In this document: positions 3,516-63,127 of the stretch, in pieces
How the letters are laid out: every line of letters begins with the position of its first letter
Numbering within the stretch: the stretch's first letter is position 1
Source: an uncultured Candidatus Saccharibacteria bacterium
Lineage (GTDB): Bacteria; Patescibacteriota; Minisyncoccia; Phycocordibacterales; XYD1-FULL-46-19
NCBI GenBank assembly: GCA_964510655.1
Contig: CAZEAY010000003.1
Location: forward strand, 18,924 to 82,923
Direction: 5' to 3'
DNA: 64,000 bases
Position numbers and translations under genes: made by a program
Notes under the pieces: model-generated
Told to the model about the DNA's origin: nothing
Databases searched by the model: none
What the model saw: the letters and a program-made list of their open reading frames with translations, nothing else

Positions 3516-4010
3516 CTAGCCTTGAGTTTCGAGAAGACCTTCAATCTCTTTATCGATTTCCTCGTTAGTCATCTCCTCCCCTTTTTCTACCACCTCCTCT
3601 TTCGACACCTCAGAATTAGCTCGCTTAGAAACTACTCCGCGAGGAATAATTACTCGCTCTGAATTCTTAGGAATCGCAACAATCAAAAACCTAACGACAT
3701 TGTTGTCTTTTTCTAAAACCTCCTTAATGGTCCGGATTTTCTCCGGGGAGATTTGAAATTTGACGGCACCGAAGTAAGCTTCTCTTACGGTGCTTTTTTT
3801 ATTACTAATAAATTTTGAAACAGGATAAGCCAAAGATCGCATTTTAGGGGCGGTTTTGACAATTATCAAACCACCTAAATCGTCGATCAAGGTCTTATAC
3901 ATAGCCTCTACCGTCTCTTCAACCTTTTCAGCTTGAAGAAATGGGGTCAGAAGGTAACCTATCTCGTAGGTCTTGGCTTCCTTCACTTCAGTTTCTGTTA
4001 CATTTTCCAC
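3516..4010 (-). CDS. rpsF: 30S ribosomal protein S6 with acidic C-terminal extension
   Basis: S6-like N-terminus (YEIGYLL..) in the conserved rpsF-ssb-rpsR order. GTG start. Confidence 0.8.
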   Translation of the reverse strand: MENVTETEVKEAKTYEIGYLLTPFLQAEKVEETVEAMYKTLIDDLGGLIIVKTAPKMRSLAYPVSKFISNKKSTVREAYFGAVKFQISPEKIRTIKEVLEKDNNVVRFLIVAIPKNSERVIIPRGVVSKRANSEVSKEEVVEKGEEMTNEEIDKEIEGLLETQG

Positions 4011-4908: not shown

Positions 4909-6363
4909 TTAGTCTTTGCGCATAAAAAGAGGAGCTGACAACTCTTTCATTTTAATTGCCTCCTGAATCTTTTTAGCCGTAACTGGCATAATGGGTTCCA
5001 AAGCCACAGCAATTCTCCAAAGAGACCCCACTAAATAAGCAACATGTATGCGTGCCTCTTCGGGTTTGTCTTTGTAAAGTTTAAACGGTTGAGTATTTTG
5101 GATGTATAAATCAGCTTCCCCGATTTGTTTCCAAATAAAATCAGCGGCTTTACTTATTTCATAATTATTTAAATTTTCACAATATTCTTGATAAAAATCA
5201 TCAGCCAGCCACTCACGAGACGATTTTAACTCACTGGTAGGTTCTGCAACTTCATAACTCTGATACATTTTTATAATCCGACTAGTCAAATTCCCTAACC
5301 CATTTGCCAGATTAGCATTATAAGATTCCTTAAATTTATCCTCAGTAAAATCACCGTCTTCAAAAGGAGTGATTTCGCGAGCCAAATAATAGCGCAAAGC
5401 TTCCGCCCCATAGTCCTTGACGACCGCGAGCGGATCCACAACATTACCAAGGCTTTTAGACATCTTCTGCCCACCAGAAGTAATAAAACCATGGATAATA
5501 ATTTGTTTAGAGGGTTCTAAGCCAGCTGACAATAACATGGCCTGCCACATCGCTGACTGCTGCCTCAGATTATCTTTACCAGCAAACTGAATTCCCGGCC
5601 ACCACTTACTAAAATTAGACTCATTTTCTGGCCAACCAAGAGCCGAGATATAATTTACCAAAGCATCAAACCAGACGTACATCACCTGCTCACTATCGCC
5701 AGGAACCTCTATCCCCCAAGGCATCTTACTCTTCAAACGAGAAATGCTAAAATCTTGTAGACCGCCAGCTACGAAATTTTTAATTTCATTCAGACGACCA
5801 GCCGGTAAAACAAAAGCTGGGGTTTCATACAAATTCAAAAGGGCTTGTTGGTATTTAGAGAAACGAAAAAAATAATTTTCTTCATCAATCATTTCAATCT
5901 CCATATTAGGATGAAGTGGACATCTGCCATCAGCTAATTCTGAATCGGTTTTTTCGAGTTCACAACCAGCACAATATTTTACCTTATAAGCCTTTTTGTA
6001 GATATCGCCAGACGCTAAACAGCGTGCCCAAAATTCCTGGGCCGCCTTTTTATGATGCTCATCGGTTGTCCGAATAAAATTAAAATTCGGATTGTCGACA
6101 TCAACAGCCAAAACACCAGCCAGCTCTTTGAATTTAGCCGAGTACTCATCAACATAAGTTTGAACTTCTATCCCCCGGCTTTCGGCAATACGTAAAATCT
6201 TAACCCCATGTTCATCAGTACCGGTGTTAAAAAAAACTTCTTGTCCCAAGAGTCTTCGATATCGAGCGATAATATCGGCCTGAATGATCTCTAAAGCAAA
6301 ACCGATATGAGGATCGGCATTTACGTAAGGTAACGTCGTCGTGAAGTAAAATTGATCAGCCAT
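4909..6363 (-). CDS. metG: methionyl-tRNA synthetase
   Basis: PYVNADPHIGFA (HIGH) and KMSKSLGN motifs. Start taken at MADQF (ATG 6361-6363), just after the stop of the upstream gene. Confidence 0.9.
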   Translation of the reverse strand: MADQFYFTTTLPYVNADPHIGFALEIIQADIIARYRRLLGQEVFFNTGTDEHGVKILRIAESRGIEVQTYVDEYSAKFKELAGVLAVDVDNPNFNFIRTTDEHHKKAAQEFWARCLASGDIYKKAYKVKYCAGCELEKTDSELADGRCPLHPNMEIEMIDEENYFFRFSKYQQALLNLYETPAFVLPAGRLNEIKNFVAGGLQDFSISRLKSKMPWGIEVPGDSEQVMYVWFDALVNYISALGWPENESNFSKWWPGIQFAGKDNLRQQSAMWQAMLLSAGLEPSKQIIIHGFITSGGQKMSKSLGNVVDPLAVVKDYGAEALRYYLAREITPFEDGDFTEDKFKESYNANLANGLGNLTSRIIKMYQSYEVAEPTSELKSSREWLADDFYQEYCENLNNYEISKAADFIWKQIGEADLYIQNTQPFKLYKDKPEEARIHVAYLVGSLWRIAVALEPIMPVTAKKIQEAIKMKELSAPLFMRKD

Positions 6364-6364
6364 A

Positions 6365-7423
6365 TTATTTACTTTTAGCGCGAATAGAAATTTTATGTTT
6401 CTCCATATCATCAGCCAATTCCATAATAACCGTCGCTAGTGGCACCGCCACCACCATTCCCAAAAAACCATAAAGTTCGGCCCCGGCCAAAAAAGACAGG
6501 ATAACAATCAATGGCGGAACTCCAATTACTTTTTTGGATACAAGTGGATAAATAACATGACTCTCCAGCTGTTGGATAACAATATAAAAAGCTAGGACAA
6601 TTAGACCCAGACCAGTACTTGTCGAAAAACCCAACAATACTCCCGGTACAGCAAAAAGGATTGGACCGAAGAATGGAATAATTTCAAAGACAGCTGACAT
6701 CAAACCTAAAGTGAGCGCAAATTTGACTCCTAGAATAGATAGGCCAAGCCAAACAGTCAGACCAACCAGTACCCCCAAAAGAACCTGCCCCTGAAACCAC
6801 AGACCAATTTTATTCTCAGTTCGATTCCATAAATTTAATAAATAGTCTTCATATTTCAAAGGGGTAACAATTCTTAAGAAATTCTCAATACCCTTCTCTT
6901 GGACAGCTAAATAGAAAGAAATGACTAAAATTAAAACGAAACTAAAAACGCCTCCAAAAATCACACTAGCGGTACTAAAAAGACTATCCGATAGTTGTAA
7001 AATAAATTTCTGGGCTTGAACAATGAGATCGCTAAGGGAAAAACTAGTCGCTAATCCGCCAGTAATAGAGGACAGTGGGTCAACCGTAGTACTAACCTGA
7101 GTAATGGCATTTAAACGCGCCGGCAAACCATTGGCTAGATCAGTAAGGTCGTTAAAAAGCGGGGGGAGAAGAAAAGAGAAACCAACAAAGATAACAGCAA
7201 AAAAACCAACATACAAAAGGAGAACAGCCCAAATTCGAGAGATCCGATATTTAGCCAAGAATTTCACCCCCTGTCCAACCGCCGTAGCAATAATTACTGC
7301 CACTAAAACAATCAGGATTAAACTTTGAAGTTTGTAGGCGGCCACCAAAACCAAGCCAATAATAATGGCTTTAATAATTGTGCCGGTGGTAATATTTACC
7401 GCTAAAGTCTTAGTGTTATCCAT
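6365..7423 (-). CDS. AI-2E family transporter (PerM/UPF0118)
   Basis: Eight-TM topology with the conserved LNL..R and VLLG... blocks typical of AI-2E/YhhT. Confidence 0.75.
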   Translation of the reverse strand: MDNTKTLAVNITTGTIIKAIIIGLVLVAAYKLQSLILIVLVAVIIATAVGQGVKFLAKYRISRIWAVLLLYVGFFAVIFVGFSFLLPPLFNDLTDLANGLPARLNAITQVSTTVDPLSSITGGLATSFSLSDLIVQAQKFILQLSDSLFSTASVIFGGVFSFVLILVISFYLAVQEKGIENFLRIVTPLKYEDYLLNLWNRTENKIGLWFQGQVLLGVLVGLTVWLGLSILGVKFALTLGLMSAVFEIIPFFGPILFAVPGVLLGFSTSTGLGLIVLAFYIVIQQLESHVIYPLVSKKVIGVPPLIVILSFLAGAELYGFLGMVVAVPLATVIMELADDMEKHKISIRAKSK

Positions 7424-7455: not shown

Positions 7456-8721
7456 CTACAGAGTCAAAATATCCACAAACTCTTGTTGATTATCATGAGG
7501 ACCTAAAATAACCAAGTTTATCCCTTTGGTCACAAATATTTTTTGCGCTAAAGTCTTAACATCTTGAGCTGTCACGGCTTTTATTTTTTTGCCAAGATCT
7601 TCAGGAGATAAGATTGTCTCTCCCCTAATTTCTTGAATACCATAAAAGGCAGCTAAATCTGATGGAGTTTCTAGGTTTAAATAAGTTGTCCCAATAAGAC
7701 TGTCTTTAACTCTAGCCAGCTCTTTTTCTGGAACCAATTCCCGCGTTAGTAAAATTATCTCATTAAGAATTGCCTTAAGGACTTCTTTCAATCTCAAACT
7801 TTGAACACCTCCAGAAATACTTAAATAACCATAGTCAGCAAAACTGGTTTGATAGGCGTTAATTGAGTAGGCCGCCCCCATCTCTTCTCGAACCTTTTGA
7901 AACAGACGAGAACTCATTGTTCCACCCAAAATTCCAGCTAATACTTCCGCGGTATAGTAATCGGGGTGACAAGAGCCAAAAGTTTTAAATCCTAAGACAA
8001 TGTTCGTCTGGGCTCCAAGTCGTTTTTTCAAAGAAAGCCTTGGGCCATTAGAAAGATTTTCTGTTTTTTCTACAGAAATGACCTCACCTTTTGCCACTGA
8101 GGAAAAATATTTTTCAATAATGTTCGGCAAATAATCTTGATCAAAATTACCCGCCACAACCACTAAAGTATTTTTTGCGTGATGGAACCTTTTTTGATAG
8201 TCTAAAAAAGCAGAACGATTTATTTTTTTTAAAGTAGACTCTGTTCCTAGAGTATTCCAACCATAAGGAGTATCTCCATACAGAAGCTCCACAAATAAGT
8301 CTTGGGCAACTCGACTAGGGTTATCAGCCGAACGATTTATTTCTTCTTCAATAACTCCACGCTCCTTTTCTATTTCGGACTCACTAAAAGAGGGGTTCAA
8401 ATACATGTCCGCCAAGATATCAAGAGCAGGCTCCAATTTGTCTGGCAAACAACTAACGTAATAGCCAGTATATTCCCGCCCAGTAAAAGCATTGTACTCC
8501 GCCCCCAAAGCATCCAACTCTGCCGACAAATCAATGGCCCGAGGACGTTTTGTCGTCCCCTTAAAACACATGTGCTCCATAAAATGAGAGATGCCATTAA
8601 GCTCTTTTGTTTCGTAATTTGAGCCAACCCCCACCAAGACTAACAAATTTACCGATAAACTATCGGGTCGAGGAACCATTATGAGCCGTAGATCATTATC
8701 TAAAGTAATTTTTTTGTACAT
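7456..8721 (-). CDS. M16 family zinc peptidase (insulinase-like)
   Basis: Inverted zinc motif HFMEHMCFKGT (HxxEH) near the N-terminus. Confidence 0.8.
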   Translation of the reverse strand: MYKKITLDNDLRLIMVPRPDSLSVNLLVLVGVGSNYETKELNGISHFMEHMCFKGTTKRPRAIDLSAELDALGAEYNAFTGREYTGYYVSCLPDKLEPALDILADMYLNPSFSESEIEKERGVIEEEINRSADNPSRVAQDLFVELLYGDTPYGWNTLGTESTLKKINRSAFLDYQKRFHHAKNTLVVVAGNFDQDYLPNIIEKYFSSVAKGEVISVEKTENLSNGPRLSLKKRLGAQTNIVLGFKTFGSCHPDYYTAEVLAGILGGTMSSRLFQKVREEMGAAYSINAYQTSFADYGYLSISGGVQSLRLKEVLKAILNEIILLTRELVPEKELARVKDSLIGTTYLNLETPSDLAAFYGIQEIRGETILSPEDLGKKIKAVTAQDVKTLAQKIFVTKGINLVILGPHDNQQEFVDILTL

Positions 8722-27418: not shown

Positions 27419-27808
27419 ATGAAAAAGACCAAGGCCGTGGTTGTTGGTGTTTCGGCCCTAAATAAACACCTCCAAGCCCTGCAGGACTCGAGAAACCACG
27501 ATTACGAAAAAAATCGTCAGCGTGGTGAAGTTATCATCCGAGCCGCCACGGGCAATCCCCTCGTCTGGCGAGAACTCAAGGTGAACCAAGAGGCTCTCAC
27601 ACGACTAATCAGGGAGACCGCCAAAAGACGAGTCATCGGACTTTTGAGCTATTTGGAAACGAACAATAACATTCCAGCTGAATACCGCCAAGCGGACAGC
27701 CGTGAGATTTTACATATTATGGAAATGGAGAAACTAACCTATGGTGATGTCGGAAAAACCGAAGCAAGTTTCCTGGCTGTGGTTCGACACAAGATCCACC
27801 ACCAATAA
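27419..27808 (+). CDS. GC-richer hypothetical protein (129 aa) with strong SD
   Basis: AAGGAGAGAGGA just upstream of the ATG, and an ORF visibly more GC-rich than its neighbours. Followed by a 7-bp stem hairpin and T-run (27826-27870). Confidence 0.45.
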   Translation: MKKTKAVVVGVSALNKHLQALQDSRNHDYEKNRQRGEVIIRAATGNPLVWRELKVNQEALTRLIRETAKRRVIGLLSYLETNNNIPAEYRQADSREILHIMEMEKLTYGDVGKTEASFLAVVRHKIHHQ

Positions 27809-27939: not shown

Positions 27940-28014
27940 TGGGTGTCCAGAGAGAATCGAACTCTCGTTATCGCTTCCACAAAGCGATGTCCTAACCGCT
28001 GGACGATGGACACC
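27940..28014 (-). tRNA. tRNA-His (anticodon GTG)
   Basis: Cloverleaf with anticodon loop CTTGTGGA and an extra 5' G(-1) opposite the discriminator C. T-loop TTCGATT. Confidence 0.85.
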
Positions 28015-28020
28015 ATATTT

Positions 28021-28527
28021 TTAAACAGAACCAACTGTAACCCGAAACCTCTCACTTTCCACCTTATCATGATGAACAAGATGATGACAATTATGGCACA
28101 GCCAAGCTAAATTATCAATTTTGTTATTTTTGTGATCCTTATCGATATGGTGGACCGCCAAGACCCTTTTATCTTTAAGACCACAAAGTTTGCAGACGGC
28201 AGGTATTTTATTCCTCAGTAATATACTCTTATATACATAGCCACCATTCTTCCAATTACCATGTTTTTCTCCAACAAATTCGGTATTTCTCCACTTTGTT
28301 TGACAACTCTTACTACAAAAAAATTTTCCACTTTTCGACCGTCCAAGCTGTTTAACTGTCTTATATGATATCTTGCCACAAACAAAACAGGGTTTTTCTT
28401 GTCCTGTCCGACTAGAAATATGCTGACATTTAGCTGAACAATACTTCCCTTTTCCGATTTTTACCCAATAAGGCTTGGTGTGAAATTCTTTAGAACAAAC
28501 ACTGCATAAAACACTGAGCATAAACAA
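28021..28527 (-). CDS. HNH endonuclease with zinc-ribbon repeats
   Basis: HHIDKDHKNNKIDNLAWLCHNCHHLVH HNH motif plus several CxxC pairs. Starts 7 nt from tRNA-His. Confidence 0.7.
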   Translation of the reverse strand: MFMLSVLCSVCSKEFHTKPYWVKIGKGKYCSAKCQHISSRTGQEKPCFVCGKISYKTVKQLGRSKSGKFFCSKSCQTKWRNTEFVGEKHGNWKNGGYVYKSILLRNKIPAVCKLCGLKDKRVLAVHHIDKDHKNNKIDNLAWLCHNCHHLVHHDKVESERFRVTVGSV

Positions 28528-28604: not shown

Positions 28605-29162
28605 TTAATAATGGGGATTCTCTTCTTTTACTCCCTTCTTGGTATTGGCAATTCGAGCCAAGGCATACAAGACTGATGACAAACGATTAAGATAAGACAG
28701 GGCCTCAGGTGAAACTACCAAATTCTCAGTCTGAGCTCTTACTACCGCCCGCTCGGTTCGTCTCGCAATTGTTCGAACGACATCAAAAAGAGAAGAGAGT
28801 TCAGTCCCACCGGGGATAATAAAACTCTTAATTGGTGGAATTTGCTTTTCAACACTATCAGTGACTAGCTCCAAAAAAGTTACCCGGGAAGCGGAAATTT
28901 TTTTATCAGCTCCCGCCAATTCAGCCTGGATAATAAAAAGATCCTGCTGAATTTCTGCCACTAAATCAGAAACAAGATTATCTTTATCGCCGACGAGAAA
29001 GGAAACTTCGTCAGTCCGACTTTTAGCTTTGCACAAACCCAAAAAAGAGTTGACTTCATCCATCGAACCAAGAGCTTCGGTCACCAAGGAGCTTTTAACA
29101 ATCCGGTTAGCACAACCAAAGGTCTTAGTTGTTCCGTCATCCCCTTTTCTCGTATAAAGCAT
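28605..29162 (-). CDS. ATP:cob(I)alamin adenosyltransferase, PduO/MMAB type
   Basis: YTRKGDDGTT N-terminus and a helical-bundle length of ~185 aa. Start at MLYTRKG (ATG 29160-29162). Confidence 0.7.
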   Translation of the reverse strand: MLYTRKGDDGTTKTFGCANRIVKSSLVTEALGSMDEVNSFLGLCKAKSRTDEVSFLVGDKDNLVSDLVAEIQQDLFIIQAELAGADKKISASRVTFLELVTDSVEKQIPPIKSFIIPGGTELSSLFDVVRTIARRTERAVVRAQTENLVVSPEALSYLNRLSSVLYALARIANTKKGVKEENPHY

Positions 29163-29224
29163 AGGGGTAATATACCATAGTCCAAAAAAAATTCCACCCA
29201 AAGTATGGATGGAGATTAGTGGGC

Positions 29225-29536
29225 TCACCGATGACGATGTTTGCCAAAGAAATCTTGTGAATAAAGATCAGGTGCAGGCACCAATCCTCGCAAGAAATCC
29301 GGCTGAGAAGTCTCGATGCGGTGGTGGGGCTGAGGAGCCACAAGAATGGCAGTCCCTTTAGGTAAAGCAGCAGCCTTGGAAGAGGCACGGAATGTTCCGA
29401 GACTGTCTGCTGGCCGGGTTCCCCAATGCCGAAAACGTACCATGTTACAGGCCTGGGCCTCAGACACCGCCTGAGCCTGACCAATAAAAACATCATTCAA
29501 GTACACCTCCCAAGTCAAAACCGGGCGCTTGGCCAT
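29225..29536 (-). CDS. GC-rich hypothetical protein (103 aa) with consensus SD and promoter
   Basis: AAGGAGG + 5 nt + ATG (29534-29536). The ORF is visibly GC-rich. No family recognised. Confidence 0.5.
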   Translation of the reverse strand: MAKRPVLTWEVYLNDVFIGQAQAVSEAQACNMVRFRHWGTRPADSLGTFRASSKAAALPKGTAILVAPQPHHRIETSQPDFLRGLVPAPDLYSQDFFGKHRHR

Positions 29537-29575
29537 GGAGACCTCCTTGGGAAAGATGACAGAATCCCTATCTGG

Positions 29576-29604
29576 ATAATAAGATTAATTCTATAGACTG
29601 TCAA
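29576..29604 (-). promoter_or_regulatory. near-consensus sigma70 promoter for the 29225..29536 gene
   Basis: Minus strand TTGACA (29599-29604), 17-nt spacer, TATTAT (29576-29581). Confidence 0.5.
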
Positions 29605-29630: not shown

Positions 29631-30293
29631 CTAAATCAGACTAGTTTGCCATAGCCAATACAAGACCGGTAGAATGATATAGAAAGAATAATGAATAATA
29701 TAGCTCCAGAGAAAACCATAACGATTCCTGACAATTAAGTAGGAAAAAATTTCTCCAGCAAAGAAAGAGGTAGAAATAAAAACAGCTGACAGCCAAGTGG
29801 TTGAAATATACAAAAGTGGCAAATGAAGGATCAAAACATAGAGACCAAAAAAACCAACATCTTTTCTTTGAGGCAATCCATTTTCAAAAAGATAATCAAT
29901 CGCTACGATAAAAAAAGCTTGTTGAAACATAATTTCGAAAGCTTTAGAGATTAAGAAGGTATTATTAACCTGAAGAGCCCAGTGCAAAGAGGACCGAAAC
30001 TCATTAAATTGAGTCGGAATAATAAAGTGGTCTAAAAAATAATAAATGGCTAGTCCTAAAACAAGAGAAATGGAAGCAATCCCAATTTCTTCAGAGGAAA
30101 AATGGTTGGCATGAGCCTTAATCCTTGTCCCTAAAAAAGTATAGAGAATAGCAATAATTAAGGCGAAATAACCACAAGTCAAGAGGTAGTTATTTACATA
30201 ATCAATTCCGTTTTGTTCCAACAATAAAACAAAAACAGCCCAAGAAGCAAACCAGGCTAAGGAAATAAGAGAAATATTTTTTAGCGTACGCAC
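29631..30293 (-). CDS. polytopic membrane protein, hypothetical (possibly CPBP-like)
   Basis: Six to seven predicted TM segments. The weak FxxxH and HxxxxF patterns are not diagnostic. Confidence 0.45.
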   Translation of the reverse strand: MRTLKNISLISLAWFASWAVFVLLLEQNGIDYVNNYLLTCGYFALIIAILYTFLGTRIKAHANHFSSEEIGIASISLVLGLAIYYFLDHFIIPTQFNEFRSSLHWALQVNNTFLISKAFEIMFQQAFFIVAIDYLFENGLPQRKDVGFFGLYVLILHLPLLYISTTWLSAVFISTSFFAGEIFSYLIVRNRYGFLWSYIIHYSFYIILPVLYWLWQTSLI

Positions 30294-30605: not shown

Positions 30606-30695
30606 TGGTGCGCGGGAGAAGACTTGAACTTCCATGCCTTGTTAAAGGGCGCTACCACCTCAAGGTAGTGCGTCTACCAATTTCGCCACCCGCGC
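30606..30695 (-). tRNA. tRNA-Leu (anticodon GAG), CCA encoded
   Basis: GCGCGGG acceptor stem, anticodon loop CTTGAGGT, long variable arm, T-loop TTCAAGT, 3' CCCGCGCACCA. Confidence 0.85.
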
Positions 30696-47299: not shown

Positions 47300-47349
47300 T
47301 TATATTCAATCTTAGCACAAAAGAAGGTTGGTAAAATAGATATAAAAAA

Positions 47350-47392
47350 ATACCCCGAAGCCGTAAACGACTTCGGGGTAAAACATCAATAG
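47350..47392 (-). terminator. terminator of the GC-rich lipoprotein gene
   Basis: CCCCGAAG..CTTCGGGG 8-bp stem followed on the minus strand by TATTTTTTTA. Confidence 0.55.
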
Positions 47393-47405
47393 TCAACTTT
47401 CTCAA

Positions 47406-47834
47406 CTAGAACCAGCTGCTATGCCGACGCTTGGACAGGAGGCGGGTCCAACTTTTAGCCTCCCGAGAGATGCTCTGGGCAGTCCTGAGGGCATCGCGCC
47501 CCTCCGACTGAGTCTGGCGACGCAAGGCAATCTCACGGCGAACCTCGCCGTCAAGCTCATGCTGAGTCTGGCGGCGATTCTCCCGATCATCGCGCGACCA
47601 CTCTCTGTCTGCGCGATCCATTTCGATGGCCTGACGATGTGCGTCACGGGACTGTTCCCGATAGCCAGCATACACAGCGGCCGCCTGACCCCGACGCGGA
47701 GTGGTGTTGACTGCCCAGTCAGCACCATTATCGGAAGGGACATAAACTCGGCGGGCGGTAGTCTGGGGGGCTGTAACGCACCCCGTAACCATCAACAAGA
47801 CAAAGAGAAGCAGGCAAACGACAAAATTCTTCAT
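47406..47834 (-). CDS. GC-rich lipoprotein with Arg/Asp/Glu-rich repeats (142 aa)
   Basis: Signal peptide plus lipobox LMVTG|C. The body is rich in RxQ/RDD/RExRR repeats. Very GC-rich relative to its flanks. GAGG ~9 nt before the ATG. Confidence 0.55.
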   Translation of the reverse strand: MKNFVVCLLLFVLLMVTGCVTAPQTTARRVYVPSDNGADWAVNTTPRRGQAAAVYAGYREQSRDAHRQAIEMDRADREWSRDDRENRRQTQHELDGEVRREIALRRQTQSEGRDALRTAQSISREAKSWTRLLSKRRHSSWF

Positions 47835-48153
47835 GGTAAGGTACCTCGGTAGTAAATTTTAGGGGTGATTGGATTAACCAGCCCTATTTGTATTCTTCTT
47901 CTATTATAGCACTATTCATACAAAAAGTCAAGTATCAAGACATTTCCCTAAAATAAACCTTAAAATAAGGATATTTTACTAGTGGGCTAAACCTAGACCA
48001 CTTAGAGAAGGGAGTGCTTACAAAATTATCTCGAAGCAACATTTGCAGTCTTAAATCAGCGGTTTTCCGCTTTAGTGGATGCTTTATTCCAAAGTGTAAG
48101 ATTGAGGGTAATTTTGATTTATTCGTGGTTATTGGTATTATAATATAAAGCAT

Positions 48154-52284: not shown

Positions 52285-53916
52285 TCAAGCAATCGTCGCC
52301 CTCAAGACTTCATCCAATGAAGTTGTCCCGGCAAAAGCCTTAAGACAACCGCTCTGTCTCAGGGTTTTCATCCCCTGTTCGCAAGCGAGCTGTTTGATCG
52401 CATCTGTCGAATGACCGGCATGGATGAAAGTTTTGATTTTCTCATCGCAAACCAGGATTTCATGAATCGGGGTCACCCCCTGATATCCGTCATAACACGA
52501 CTGACAGCCCACTGGACCGCGAACTTGTTGCAAATAGTCGCCATCCTCCAAACCGAGATGTTTTACCATTTCAGTATTTGGCCGGCTAACTCTGGAACAA
52601 GCTTCGCAGAGTTTGCGAACTAATCGTTGGGCGATGATAACCTGAAGAGCATCGGCAATCATAAATCTGGGAATTCCCAAATCAACCAGACGAGAAACCG
52701 CCGACGGAGCATCGTTGGTATGCAGAGTTGAAAGGACTAGATGCCCAGTGAGAGCAGCCTGCAAAGCAACTCCAGCGGTTTCTGTATCTCGCATCTCTCC
52801 AATCATAATCACATCAGGGTTCTGCCTCAAGCAGGCCCGTAAGGAATTGGAGAAATTAAGCCCAGTTCTTTCGTTCGTCTGAGTCTGATTGATTCCCTTA
52901 ATTCGATACTCGATGGGATCCTCGATGGTGATGATCTTTTTATCACGCGTGTTCAGCTCATTAAGCAAGGCACACAACAGGGTTGTCTTGCCAGAACCCG
53001 TCGGTCCCGTCGCCAAGATCGCCCCATTAGGCTTTTGAATAAGGAGCCTTAACATTTCCACATCAGAGTCGCTCAATCCCATTTCACCCAATGTCTTTTG
53101 GGCATTCTTGGGATCAAGCAACCGAAGCGTCACCATCTCACCATATTGCGTCAAAAGAGTAGCGATCCGAATATCATAACTCTGATTACGGTATTCTACT
53201 CGAATGCTCCCATCTTGTGGATGACGACATTCTTCGATTTTCATTCCAGCCCGGCTCTTAAGGAAAGAGACCATACCGAGGAGCCAGCCCGATTTACAAG
53301 GAGGCTCAATGTCGCGCAGACACCCATCAATTCGATATCGAACCACCACACCGTCTTCCCATGGTTCGATACTGATATCTGAGGCACGCTCGCGAATTGC
53401 TCCACAAAGAATGGCCCCTACCAAGTGCTCATTCCCAACCACCTTCGGCAGAACACCTCCCTCTGGTAGGATAAGTTCTCCGGGACGCTCCCCAACAGGT
53501 GGAGGATTCTCGTTTGCTTTTACAATGACCTCCATCTGATTTCCCGCTTTGGAGTAAAACCTCTCAAGACAAATGAGAATATCTTTCTCCAAAGCGAGTA
53601 TCGGTTCGATTCCAACATCGCCAATCTCATAAGGAAGTCGATCTGTAAGCTCAAGGTTGCCCGGATCATTGGTGGCGACAGCCAAACGATTTGATTCGGA
53701 ATTGAACCTAATCGCCACGATACAATACTTCCGAGCAATCTCTTCAGGAATCATTTTGACCACAATCGGATCAAGCGATTCTGGTCTCAATTCCATTGGT
53801 TTGGGCAACAAGGATTGTTCAAAGGATGAAGAGATTGAGCCTGGATGAGCCGCATCTCCTATACGTTCCACATTCCTTGCCAATTGACCATCACCTCCAT
53901 TACCCGGTCGAGACAT
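52285..53916 (-). CDS. GspE/PilB-family secretion ATPase, GC-rich foreign-looking copy
   Basis: N-terminal GspII_E_N-like domain, ATGPTGSGKTT Walker A, and His and Asp boxes. Visibly ~50% GC. GAGGAGGG sits 7 nt before the ATG at 53914-53916. Confidence 0.85.
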   Translation of the reverse strand: MSRPGNGGDGQLARNVERIGDAAHPGSISSSFEQSLLPKPMELRPESLDPIVVKMIPEEIARKYCIVAIRFNSESNRLAVATNDPGNLELTDRLPYEIGDVGIEPILALEKDILICLERFYSKAGNQMEVIVKANENPPPVGERPGELILPEGGVLPKVVGNEHLVGAILCGAIRERASDISIEPWEDGVVVRYRIDGCLRDIEPPCKSGWLLGMVSFLKSRAGMKIEECRHPQDGSIRVEYRNQSYDIRIATLLTQYGEMVTLRLLDPKNAQKTLGEMGLSDSDVEMLRLLIQKPNGAILATGPTGSGKTTLLCALLNELNTRDKKIITIEDPIEYRIKGINQTQTNERTGLNFSNSLRACLRQNPDVIMIGEMRDTETAGVALQAALTGHLVLSTLHTNDAPSAVSRLVDLGIPRFMIADALQVIIAQRLVRKLCEACSRVSRPNTEMVKHLGLEDGDYLQQVRGPVGCQSCYDGYQGVTPIHEILVCDEKIKTFIHAGHSTDAIKQLACEQGMKTLRQSGCLKAFAGTTSLDEVLRATIA

Positions 53917-60409: not shown

Positions 60410-61512
60410 TACCGATTGATTGGCATAATAATATATTGAAAGGTAGTATCTCCAATACCAACAATTAAAAGTGGTCGATTTTTTTCATTAAATTTCATCG
60501 CCACAGTATCGGAAGAAATTGACTGAAAACAATCTAGAATATACCGGGCATTAAAACTCATCTCAATATCCTCACCCTCTAATACCGCTTGTAAAGAAAT
60601 AGTATTTTCACCCACATCTTGGTTTTTAGAATTTAATTCAAAAATTTTACTTTGAGGTGAAATTTTAACATTTATTTGGTTAAATTTATCAGAAAAAATA
60701 TTAGACAATTTTAAAGCATTCATTAATTCATCCCGAGAAATAGTAACTTCTGTCTTAAATTTTTTCGGCATTATTTGTCCGTAATCTGGGAAATTACCAT
60801 CAATCACCCTTGAGGTAAAGTGAATATTGTCTGTATAAAAAGAAATTTGGTTTTTATTAGCCTCAATCTTAACTTCTTGATCAAGATTATCAAAAACCTT
60901 AATTATTTCAGCGACATTTTTAAAAGGAATAATTACCGACTGAAAATCTTTATTCTTTTCTCTAATAACCACCCTTTTTTCCGCTAAACGAAAAGAATCC
61001 GTTGCCACAAAAACTAATTCCTTATCATCTTGATAAATATAAACACTTGATATTTCTGGTTTTATATCAGACAAAGAAGCAGAATATAAAACTGACCGCA
61101 AACCAGTAACAATATCTTTTCCATTAAAAGAAAAAGAATTTCCATCTTCCACCCTTGGAATCACTGGAAAATCTTCTGCTGAATAACTTTTTATTAAAGT
61201 CGAGCTAGAACCAGTAGAAATATGAATATTTTCTTTAATTAATTCTAATTTTACTTTATCTTCTTTATTAAGATTACCTAAAAAACCACTTAAAATATTC
61301 GCACTAACAGCCACACTACCATTTTCCGTAATTTTAGCTGGTAACTCTATTTCTAAACCAACATCGAGATTTGTGGCTTTGATTACTAAAGCATTATCTT
61401 TTGCCTCTAAAAGAATTGAACTTAGAATTGGTAAAGATAGATTTTTTCCAGATACCCGCTCAGCGATACCAACAACTTCTTTTAGCTTATCTTTGATCAA
61501 TTCTAATTTCAT
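60409..61512 (-). CDS. dnaN: DNA polymerase III beta sliding clamp
   Basis: Three-domain ~367 aa protein with MKLELIKDKLKEVVGIAERV... typical of DnaN, adjacent to dnaA. Confidence 0.9.
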   Translation of the reverse strand: MKLELIKDKLKEVVGIAERVSGKNLSLPILSSILLEAKDNALVIKATNLDVGLEIELPAKITENGSVAVSANILSGFLGNLNKEDKVKLELIKENIHISTGSSSTLIKSYSAEDFPVIPRVEDGNSFSFNGKDIVTGLRSVLYSASLSDIKPEISSVYIYQDDKELVFVATDSFRLAEKRVVIREKNKDFQSVIIPFKNVAEIIKVFDNLDQEVKIEANKNQISFYTDNIHFTSRVIDGNFPDYGQIMPKKFKTEVTISRDELMNALKLSNIFSDKFNQINVKISPQSKIFELNSKNQDVGENTISLQAVLEGEDIEMSFNARYILDCFQSISSDTVAMKFNEKNRPLLIVGIGDTTFQYIIMPINR

Positions 61513-61765
61513 AGTATTAAATTTATTTTTTTTAAAAGAAGAAAAGTTATTGTTATAGTTGTTGTTGATAAGTGTACAAGTTAAATTTATCCTTATTTTA
61601 CAACTTTTATTGGGATAAATTTTATTTAATAAACTGGGGATAAGATGGGATAAATGAGTATTTTTTAATTTTTAATTTTAAGAGAGTGTTAATTTATCCT
61701 AAATTAATTAACTCCTTATCCTTAGTTTTTTAACAGATCTATCCACAAGTTATCCAGAACTAATT
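61513..61765. promoter_or_regulatory. DnaA-box cluster between dnaA and dnaN (oriC candidate)
   Basis: TATCCACAAGTTATCCAGA (61739-61760), GGGATAAGATGGGATAAATG, TTATCCTTA and TTATCCTAA in an AT-rich spacer. Confidence 0.5.
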
Positions 61766-63127
61766 TTAATTATTGTAAAGCAAGACTCTAATTTGATCTA
61801 TTTCCTGGCTAAGTAAGTCGTCACTCTTTATATCCCCTTTTATTTTTTCATAAGCGTGGATAACAGTGGTATGGTCTCTTCCTCCCATTTTTTGTCCGAT
61901 ATAAGGATAAGAAGTATTAAAATCTTCCCGTAAAATATACATAATAATTTGCCTTGGTTTAACAACTTCTTTTCTTCGGCTTTTTTCAAATAACATTTTT
62001 TCTTCAATGTTATAGAAATTGGATATTACACTTATCACTTCTTTAGTAGAGACGGTCTTTTGAGGCTTTATACTGTTCTTAATCAAGAGTTTAACCTCGG
62101 GGACTGTTAAGTTCTTGTTTTTGGCCTGTGATTGGCATATAACCGAATTTAAAGCCCCTTCTAGCTCACGAATACTGTCTTGAACAACAGAAGCTAGATA
62201 TTCTATTACTTCATCGGAGATTTGGAGGTTATTGTTTTTTACCTTAGAACGTAAAATAGCCAAACGAGACTCATAATCTGGTCTAGCCACATCAACAATC
62301 ATCCCCCCCTCAAAACGGGAGCGTAATCTTTCCTCTAGATTTTGGATATATTTTGGTGGTTTATCGGATGAAAAGATAATTTGCTTATTGTTTTCATAAA
62401 AACTATTGAATAAGTGGAAAAGTTCCTCTTGGGTTTTATCTTTGTTTGAGAAAAATTGAACATCATCCATAATAATCACATCATATTTTCGATATTTTTC
62501 CTTAAATTGCCCAACCTTATTGTTTATTACGGAATTTATGTAATCTGTAGAGAAAGTTTCAGAGGTTAAGTAGAAAATTTTCTTATTTTCATTTTGACGC
62601 TTGATATGATTGCCAATTGATTGAATTAAGTGGGTTTTACCCAAACCCGTCCCCCCATAGATGTATAGAGGGTTGTAGTTCATTCCTGGGTTCTTAACAA
62701 CCGCTTGAGCAGCGGCATAAGCAACTTCATTGAAAGGGCCAACAATAAATGATTCAAAGGTATATTTAGGATTTAAATTACTGTCCCTATTTACATATAG
62801 TTCGTTGAGGCCTAATTGATCGGTGGTGGCCATCTTAAGACTTTGTTCTTCAGCTGCTTTAGTTTTGTTTCTGTCTTCTATTTTAGAGATGGTGTACTCC
62901 AAAGCTCTTACCTCAGGAGAAGCATCTCTTAAAGCCTTAAGAATAAATTTATGATATTTGTTTAGTAACCAGTCACGAACAAAGGTGTTTGGGACACTAA
63001 GGTAGACCACCCCTTGATCTTGTTTTGAAATGAAAGTGTTTTTAAACCAGGTTCCGAAACTTGCCTTGGAAATTGTTAACTCTATCTCGGCCAGAGCCAT
63101 GTCCCAAAGTTTTTTGTTTTCTAACAT
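61766..63127 (-). CDS. dnaA: chromosomal replication initiator DnaA
   Basis: AAA+ GGTGLGKTHL, sensor motifs and the C-terminal DNA-binding domain (DHTTVIHAYEKI). Confidence 0.95.
   Translation of the reverse strand: MLENKKLWDMALAEIELTISKASFGTWFKNTFISKQDQGVVYLSVPNTFVRDWLLNKYHKFILKALRDASPEVRALEYTISKIEDRNKTKAAEEQSLKMATTDQLGLNELYVNRDSNLNPKYTFESFIVGPFNEVAYAAAQAVVKNPGMNYNPLYIYGGTGLGKTHLIQSIGNHIKRQNENKKIFYLTSETFSTDYINSVINNKVGQFKEKYRKYDVIIMDDVQFFSNKDKTQEELFHLFNSFYENNKQIIFSSDKPPKYIQNLEERLRSRFEGGMIVDVARPDYESRLAILRSKVKNNNLQISDEVIEYLASVVQDSIRELEGALNSVICQSQAKNKNLTVPEVKLLIKNSIKPQKTVSTKEVISVISNFYNIEEKMLFEKSRRKEVVKPRQIIMYILREDFNTSYPYIGQKMGGRDHTTVIHAYEKIKGDIKSDDLLSQEIDQIRVLLYNN

Follow-up and report, generated by a model that had tools for sequence, protein, structure and literature searches.

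A 64,000-nt stretch of DNA from an uncultured Candidatus Saccharibacteria bacterium (contig CAZEAY010000003.1, positions 18,924 to 82,923; hereafter the window) carries on its minus strand a small gene for a basic protein of 103 amino acids (aa), which a first-pass annotation made from the letters alone had singled out for its promoter and ribosome-binding signals. Examination of this locus, its relatives, and the predicted protein leaves very little doubt that it is a genuine protein gene, expressed on its own and related to phage genes. As the best overall explanation, with a probability of about 0.45, we propose a domesticated phage replication accessory protein, possibly tethered to the beta sliding clamp DnaN. 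The evidence comes from a set of 24 sequence clusters, seven of which, including the window copy, are of the candidate phyla radiation (CPR, Patescibacteria) type and 17 of phage type.

The expression cassette and its coding sequence

Positions 29604-29184 are a self-contained monocistronic cassette, consisting of promoter, Shine-Dalgarno (SD) sequence, open reading frame (ORF), and intrinsic terminator (Table 1). Every element named by the first-pass annotation (TTGACA, 17-nt spacer, TATTAT, AAGGAGG, 5 nt, ATG) was found at its place on the minus strand, and translation reproduced the quoted 103-aa sequence down to its TGA; the intrinsic terminator comes in addition to the elements that the annotation had named. 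The promoter is the top match in a scan of the region 27-32 kb, with transcription predicted to start near 29569. The annotation had further called the combination of signals unique in the window. This holds for the promoter/SD pair inside 90 nt, which occurs once and was obtained in none of 200 first-order Markov simulations; it does not hold for either signal alone, as the whole window contains five promoters with at most one mismatch (~2 expected) and four AAGGAGG-N4-8-ATG sites (~0.9 expected). Its description of the ORF as GC-rich was borne out (53.4% vs 38.9% for the window; among 300-nt GC peaks it ranks second), and so was the location between tRNA-His (27941-28013) and tRNA-Leu, an interval which does hold an HNH-like ORF (28021-28527) with weak Pfam matches (E ~1e-3, sub-cut-off).

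A GC-rich island in an AT-rich genome, with overlapping ORFs in other frames including one of 119 aa on the same strand, might represent non-coding DNA that is open by chance, or the strong promoter might drive a structured non-coding RNA. The outcome of the first database search, which gave only the ORF itself, and an uninformative AlphaFold model computed without alignment (pLDDT, the predicted local distance difference test, of 39) fit such an origin. The substitution pattern speaks against it. The annotated frame has the highest codon log-likelihood of all six frames (z = 3.9 vs shuffles) and a GC content ranked by codon position as GC1 > GC2 ≈ GC3, as in the long genes of the window. Nucleotide identity among the CPR members amounts to 0.55-0.70 at codon positions 1-2 and to 0.26-0.46 at position 3. 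The window copy and its closest relative carrying the small gene (L082) use the same codon at 18 of 44 identical residues, an invariant Ser is encoded by TCT in the window and by AGT in two other members, Arg codons alternate between CGN and AGA, and synonymous divergence (dS) is saturated between CPR orthologues. Codon-position pattern, switches within six-fold codon families, and saturated dS together indicate that selection acts on the amino-acid sequence, so that the annotated ORF shows the substitution pattern of a protein-coding gene. Nor did an RNA become apparent: Rfam 15, searched at gathering thresholds and at E = 10, gave nothing beyond a chance match to SNORD20, the single-sequence fold was unremarkable (z = -1.68), and RNAalifold on six orthologous transcripts yielded -3 kcal/mol with no common helices, for which reasons a structured RNA was rejected. 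Considering in addition that the protein profile retrieves phage proteins and that the alignment-based fold is confident, a chance ORF or non-coding RNA is effectively refuted and has to be regarded as very improbable.

The GC excess itself recurs in all seven CPR lineages, with gene/locus values of 53/40, 42/39, 53/43, 56/45, 60/42, 39/37, and 49/38%, being smallest in L082 and in a second locus, L095. In the window copy, enrichment of Ala, Arg, Pro, His, and Gln and depletion of Lys, Ile, Asn, and Glu lead to an expected GC content of 48.7%, so that amino-acid composition accounts for about two-thirds of the excess; the remainder lies in a raised GC content at third codon positions (GC3; 0.485 observed vs 0.355 expected, P ~0.005), strongest in the part encoding the N-terminal domain. 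Several ribosomal-protein genes and the SSB gene of the window likewise have raised GC3. Since synonymous sites are saturated and the excess nevertheless persists in all seven lineages, it is not a fresh signature of horizontal transfer, and recent transfer was set aside as an unlikely cause. Possible causes are selection on codon use at a high level of expression and some property of the mRNA itself.

Table 1. Coordinates of the cassette, the regions of its product, and the genes bounding it (positions in the window; all on the minus strand)
Feature	Positions	Strand	Details
Sigma-70-type promoter	29576..29604	-	TTGACA 29604-29599, 17-nt spacer, TATTAT 29581-29576; 11/12 match
Shine-Dalgarno AAGGAGG	29541..29547	-	28 nt after TATTAT, 5 nt before ATG 29536-29534
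Coding sequence	29225..29536 (including stop)	-	103-aa basic protein, isoelectric point (pI) 10.0; TGA 29227-29225
N-terminal domain, residues 1-55	29372..29536	-	beta 7-13, beta 16-23, alpha 26-38, beta 49-54 (predicted)
Variable tail, residues 56-103	29228..29371	-	predicted disordered, pLDDT <50
QPDFL, residues 78-82	29291..29305	-	degenerate candidate clamp motif; aligns with QENFL, QLRLP, QLRLS, QQTLF, QISLF, QMSMF
Intrinsic terminator	29184..29213	-	8-bp hairpin 29213-29193, then T8 29191-29184
PduO-type adenosyltransferase gene	28605..29177	-	ATG 29162-29160; PF01923 E = 1e-44; conserved 3' boundary of cassette
tRNA-Leu(GAG)	30606..30695	-	ancestral 5' boundary of insertion slot

Relatives in phages and in the CPR branch

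The first-pass annotation had recognized no family in the translation and had suggested a homology search as well as a look at the same locus in related genomes. No curated family indeed matches: Pfam-A, PHROGs v4, NCBIfam 20, PADLOC 2.0, and PDB sequences gave no above-threshold match for any of the 24 members, the best PHROG value being E = 0.004 to families without known function and PADLOC returning no defense-system match. A profile search against PDB sequences yielded just a designed repeat protein at E = 0.22, and the 24-member profile nothing. Among 5.8 billion proteins, a word-indexed search made with the ORF alone recovered nothing but the query itself. Scanning metagenome and viral sequences with the single protein was equally fruitless, as was BLAST by DNA and by protein against phage and plasmid records; no copy is detectable in deposited phage genomes. 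The word-indexed null result proved to be misleading because a 47%-identical orthologue exists: exhaustive HMMER on 1.84 billion cluster representatives retrieved P0002 (107 aa, 47% identity over full length, E = 8e-13) and also P0005 (70 aa). Iterated profiles, together with a search of metagenome contigs for a degenerate pattern, extended these to the 24 clusters of 65-113 aa, all with uninformative names, of which P0001, P0002, P0005, P0007, P0008, P0010, and P0011 are of CPR type. A literature search for a prior description of the family brought up nothing relevant. The small protein belongs to an undescribed family, small in size, and its gene is not a true orphan because phage relatives exist.

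The link between both groups is provided by the profile of the seven CPR sequences alone, which retrieves phage-type members at E = 1e-8 to 1e-4 (for a database size fixed at 10^6) with no other scoring segment among 16,000 six-frame segments. The 17 phage-type clusters have in common the core Y-x-V-[YF]...[LIV]-G-x-T-x-AVSExQAxNxxR; the conserved N-terminal domain of the small protein has the core motif WEVY...F-I-G-x3-AVSExQACNxVRxR. Phage-type genes are located in replication/recombination modules, beside AAA_24, DUF669, ERCC4, DUF927, or PriCT primase-helicases. The gene orders are Gp157 - ERF - SSB - ERCC4 - small protein - CHC2 zinc finger - DUF927/HTH_56 primase-helicase (L094), AAA_24 - small protein - DUF669 (L093), DUF927 - DnaB-like - small protein - ERCC4 on a contig also carrying terminase and portal genes (L098), and, on two IMG/VR contigs, Gp157 - Zn ribbon - small protein - AAA_24 - DUF669 - PriCT_2/AAA_25. 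One family member is fused to a C-terminal Zn ribbon, and overlaps with Zn-ribbon or CHC2 ORFs are seen in others.

The genome from which the window comes is patescibacterial (Paceibacteria/Nomurabacteria-like). Around the CPR copies stand L19, rluD, tRNA-Leu, pduO, and tRNA-His, and neither structural nor integrase genes of phages occur among these neighbors. As to the homologous loci, the ORF is kept at the same place in six other CPR lineages. Absence from every homologous locus, which the first-pass annotation had named as a point of refutation, is thus not what was found, and its reading of a real gene without recognizable family and with strong expression signals is supported. All seven copies stand directly upstream of a gene for a PduO-type ATP:cob(I)alamin adenosyltransferase (Cob_adeno_trans, PF01923). 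The usual order is rluD - L19 - tRNA-Leu(GAG) - small gene - pduO - tRNA-His(GTG), with L095 having SelR as the upstream neighbor of the small gene. All seven loci combine a near-consensus promoter, an SD of the GAAAGGAGG type, and a terminator. The six orthologue promoters read TTGATT-17-TATAAT, TTGACT-17-TATAAT, TTGACT-16-TATAAT, TTGACT-17-TATACT, TTGACT-16-TATAAT, and TTGACA-16-TATAAA; their SD sequences follow (G/A)AAGGAG(G/T) at 5-8 nt ahead of the start codon, and in all seven genes a terminator hairpin is followed by a U-run (free energy -7.8 to -23.9 kcal/mol). The maintenance of near-consensus transcription and translation signals throughout the CPR branch implies that the product is probably abundant. 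In the four best-sampled carriers the neighboring L19 is 68-90% and PduO 49-64% identical, a divergence which shows long-standing inheritance of the cassette. The CPR copies are a long-retained chromosomal derivative in a family whose other members are phage replication-module proteins.

AlphaFold, run with an alignment of four orthologues, predicted the N-terminal domain (residues 1-55) confidently, with pLDDT 76-89 over residues 1-50. Its closest structural matches are uncharacterized phage proteins of 48-60 aa: BFVD entries A0A7H0XG18 (Pseudomonas phage phiK7A1), A0A873WLX2 (Burkholderia phage Mica), and V5Q7E7 (Xylella phage Sano) share the beta-beta-alpha-beta topology with target-normalized TM-scores of 0.64-0.78 and Foldseek probabilities of ~1.0, although their E-values reach only 0.02-0.05, their identity 14-23%, and no function is known for them. 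Foldseek against PDB gave no significant match. HicB-like, AbrB-like, and ribbon-helix-helix folds were dropped as candidates in view of the beta-beta-alpha-beta topology and the lack of profile support.

The tail motif and competing explanations of function

Beyond this domain, the tails are unalignable between orthologues but for one short motif. All seven CPR tails retain Qxx[LMF][FLPS], and five of the seven members end in strict clamp-binding-like peptides (QISLF, QQTLF, QMSMF, QLRLPT, QLRLSV), the motif forming their last 5-6 residues. Candidate clamp-binding peptides from the CPR tails are KREDEQISLF, PVGRQQTLF, YQARQLRLPT, and IETSQPDFLRGLVP. The bacterial clamp-binding motif is Q-phi-x-L-F (QL[S/D]LF) or Q-phi-x-L-x-L, with positions 1, 4, and 5 being critical and an unstructured C-terminus as the typical site; examples are Hda QLSLPL and Pol IV QLVLGL, with MutS QLSFF as a natural variant (PMC4549789; bioRxiv 10.64898/2026.05.27.728225). 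Upon shuffling, the probability of a strict match is 0.007-0.03 per tail. Among 634 control proteins from long ORFs of the same genomes, none carries the strict C-terminal motif, and 3.5% carry the loose form within the last 35 residues. The window QPDFL and the L082 QENFL conform to the loose pattern only, each being internal with ~25 more residues after it; QPDFL begins 26 residues from the C-terminus, inside the disordered tail. All members are basic (pI ~10).

The most specific reading of these data, a clamp-tethered accessory factor of DNA metabolism, is put forward tentatively, based on the short motif in its disordered setting, the basic charge, and the presence of a DnaN gene in the window. 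The CPR branch is a chromosomal derivative that was fixed, in one lineage of Paceibacteria, at the insertion-prone site bounded by tRNA-Leu(GAG) and the adenosyltransferase gene, and that has been inherited under purifying selection with its near-consensus signals maintained. According to the proposed scheme, the disordered tail would offer its Qxx[LMF][FLPS] peptide to DnaN at the clamp's hydrophobic pocket, and docking would either place the basic N-terminal domain on clamp-loaded DNA or let the protein compete with other clamp clients. For the family, clamp tethering is conceivable at somewhat less than even odds, while for the more degenerate motif of the window copy it is doubtful. Equally doubtful is the scheme in its full form, by which a phage protein domesticated in Paceibacteria acquired its C-terminal clamp peptide and consensus signals and may now be an abundant DnaN-binding factor, acting as a lineage-specific regulator of clamp traffic and replication in bacteria lacking Hda- or YabA-type regulators or as a decoy that withholds the host clamp from infecting phages.

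Several points count against clamp tethering and the proposal built on it. The window QPDFL is internal, has Pro at position 2, and matches the consensus poorly; short linear motifs readily come about by chance; the seven CPR sequences amount to only ~3 independent lineages; and the AlphaFold model is built on only four sequences. The motif is also missing from 16 of the 17 phage-type members, for which reason clamp binding, if real, would be a feature of the CPR branch rather than of the family at large.

As a separate observation, dnaN (60412-61512) and dnaA lie adjacent to each other in the window (60412-63127, minus strand), which therefore probably includes the chromosomal origin region.

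Nearly as likely as the clamp-tethered factor is a motif-independent nucleic-acid binder or protein inhibitor. The gene would then be phage-derived with an incidental tail motif, the basic folded domain acting alone, a possibility we hold to be real and yet clearly short of even odds. It could be a small nucleic-acid-binding or nucleoid-associated protein, or an inhibitor kept as a moron-like, phage-exclusion, or host-takeover factor. The high pI, the phage relatives residing in replication modules and mostly devoid of the motif, and the cassette's own promoter, terminator, and deviant GC content, as in phage morons, are all in line with this explanation, as are the Zn-ribbon fusion and the Zn-ribbon/CHC2 overlaps, which suggest DNA- or primase-associated work. 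It leaves unexplained, however, why Qxx-hydrophobic-hydrophobic should be the sole kept feature of otherwise drifting tails and C-terminal in five of seven, and the missing PADLOC match and the lack of flanking prophage genes at the CPR loci do not favor it either.

A third explanation starts from the invariable neighbor. As all seven copies adjoin Cob_adeno_trans, including the L095 copy with its different upstream gene, the small protein might be dedicated to the PduO-type adenosyltransferase, as its partner or regulator, or the adenosyltransferase gene might be regulated by the transcript of the small one, serving as an upstream ORF or attenuator. Yet at every locus the small gene ends in a terminator and the adenosyltransferase ATG has a -10 element of its own ahead of it, at least 80 related genomes hold the adenosyltransferase gene without the small gene, and no PduO gene was found near the phage relatives examined (L093, L094, L098, L100-L102). 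The adjacency can be attributed to insertion into the tRNA-Leu/adenosyltransferase slot, which left almost no spacer for rearrangement, and a functional tie is unlikely, ranking far behind both readings discussed above. The strong terminator, the separate -10 in 7/7 loci, and the homologues without that neighbor speak in particular against a leader peptide or attenuator.

The insertion slot, other genes, and known systems

The history of the slot can be followed at loci without the cassette. With the ORF or its DNA as query in tblastn, blastn, and nhmmer, the small gene was absent from 80/80 adenosyltransferase loci of GTDB representatives. In 35 of these 80 loci tRNA-Leu(GAG) lies at most 1.5 kb upstream of the adenosyltransferase gene, with a gap of 0-65 nt in ~14, and in three the adenosyltransferase ATG touches or overlaps the tRNA 3' end. 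The ancestral junction is tRNA-Leu followed directly by the adenosyltransferase gene. Other lineages carry different cargo in the same gap, namely desaturases, a HicA/HicB-like pair (L064 2025-2546), membrane proteins, and a conserved 80-aa protein beginning MKK[IV]G[KR]VTHYYDH[LI]GVAIVEL… in three lineages (L013 3750-3992, L042 3257-3499, L028 3677-3919). This varied content points to a general insertion hot spot, a variable slot behind tRNA-Leu in which the cassette is one alternative insert among several. In the window, a gene for a 220-aa multi-pass membrane protein (29631-30293, minus strand, 34% GC) lies between tRNA-Leu and the cassette; as the related loci all lack a homologue and neither Pfam nor PHROG gives a match, it is apparently a further lineage-specific insertion in the slot.

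The adenosyltransferase gene of the window lies outside the transcript of the small gene. It possesses its own extended -10-like element TGgTATATT (29177-29169), 6 nt before the ATG, and no SD, from which its mRNA is probably leaderless; across the carriers of the small gene a -10-like element is likewise found 6-9 nt before this ATG, again with no SD. In relatives without the cassette (L005 about 3995-4005; L017, L024) the ATG directly adjoins tRNA-Leu(GAG) or has its A in common with the CCA end of that tRNA (…gcaCCATGttg), which suggests that tRNA 3' processing may release a leaderless adenosyltransferase mRNA, a form of tRNA punctuation.

Two further features were observed at the L082 locus. 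Between rluD and L19, bAvd and a reverse transcriptase (RVT_1) at 5559-7072 form the signature of a diversity-generating retroelement, and the tRNA-Leu 3' end (gtcctgtctcgggcac; tRNA at 7679-7761) recurs at ~7908-7925, ~140 nt past the tRNA and just before the small-gene promoter. This repeat looks like an att-like scar, left by an integration event in which the tRNA end was restored. Downstream of the adenosyltransferase gene of the window, the HNH-like ORF mentioned above (168 aa, minus strand) shares 47-61% identity with equally placed ORFs in at least seven related loci (L025, L036, L046, L059, L060, L064, L074), making it a recurrent neighbor and not a one-off.

Elsewhere in the window, a second self-contained GC-rich cassette (63% vs 39% for the window) occupies 47345-47931 on the minus strand. 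It comprises TTGACT-17-TATAAT at 47931, a 142-aa ORF (47834-47406) with a lipoprotein-type signal peptide (…LLMVTGC), and a GC-rich terminator hairpin at ~47345-47380. Its ORF has no Pfam match, and the sole PHROG match is weak (Rz-like spanin, E = 0.003) and confined to the signal peptide; beyond its own genome, it was found on one short Logan contig only. A 543-aa ORF with 48% GC (52285-53916, minus strand) matches phrog_19065 at E = 2e-93, a family of unknown function resembling P-loop ATPases, and contains on the opposite strand a 76-aa ORF (53309-53539, plus strand) with a perfect AAGGAGG-4-ATG, one of the few consensus SD-ATG sites in the window, which is probably spurious. Between the malic-enzyme gene and tRNA-His, a compositionally deviant 129-aa ORF (27419-27808, plus strand, 49% GC) has no Pfam family and just a weak PHROG match (E = 0.002).

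CPR/Patescibacteria have small genomes, known from uncultivated organisms and rich in unannotated genes, and one such gene is here found to be real, selected, and probably abundant. If the clamp link is true, it would add a new small clamp client in a phylum about whose control of replication next to nothing is known, and would be at the same time an example of phage gene domestication. A lesson for similar cases is that an apparent singleton among 5.8 billion proteins gained relatives only by exhaustive HMMER and profile iteration.

In comparison with known systems, PaaB, a phenylacetyl-CoA oxygenase subunit, and the fold of ribosomal protein eL20/LX are listed among the closest. Phage morons resemble the small gene in having their own promoter and terminator, deviant GC content (for the small gene, 4-18 points higher than in its genome), phage relatives, and a tRNA-adjacent site; unlike them, it lies outside any prophage and is vertically inherited in a chromosomal slot. 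With the beta-clamp clients Hda, Pol IV, Pol II and UmuC (QLxLF), and insertion sequence (IS) transposases, five of the seven CPR members share tails ending in a peptide like Q-phi-x-L-F or Q-phi-x-L-x-L, whereas the folded domain of the small protein is unrelated to those of known clients and the motif of the window copy is degenerate and internal.

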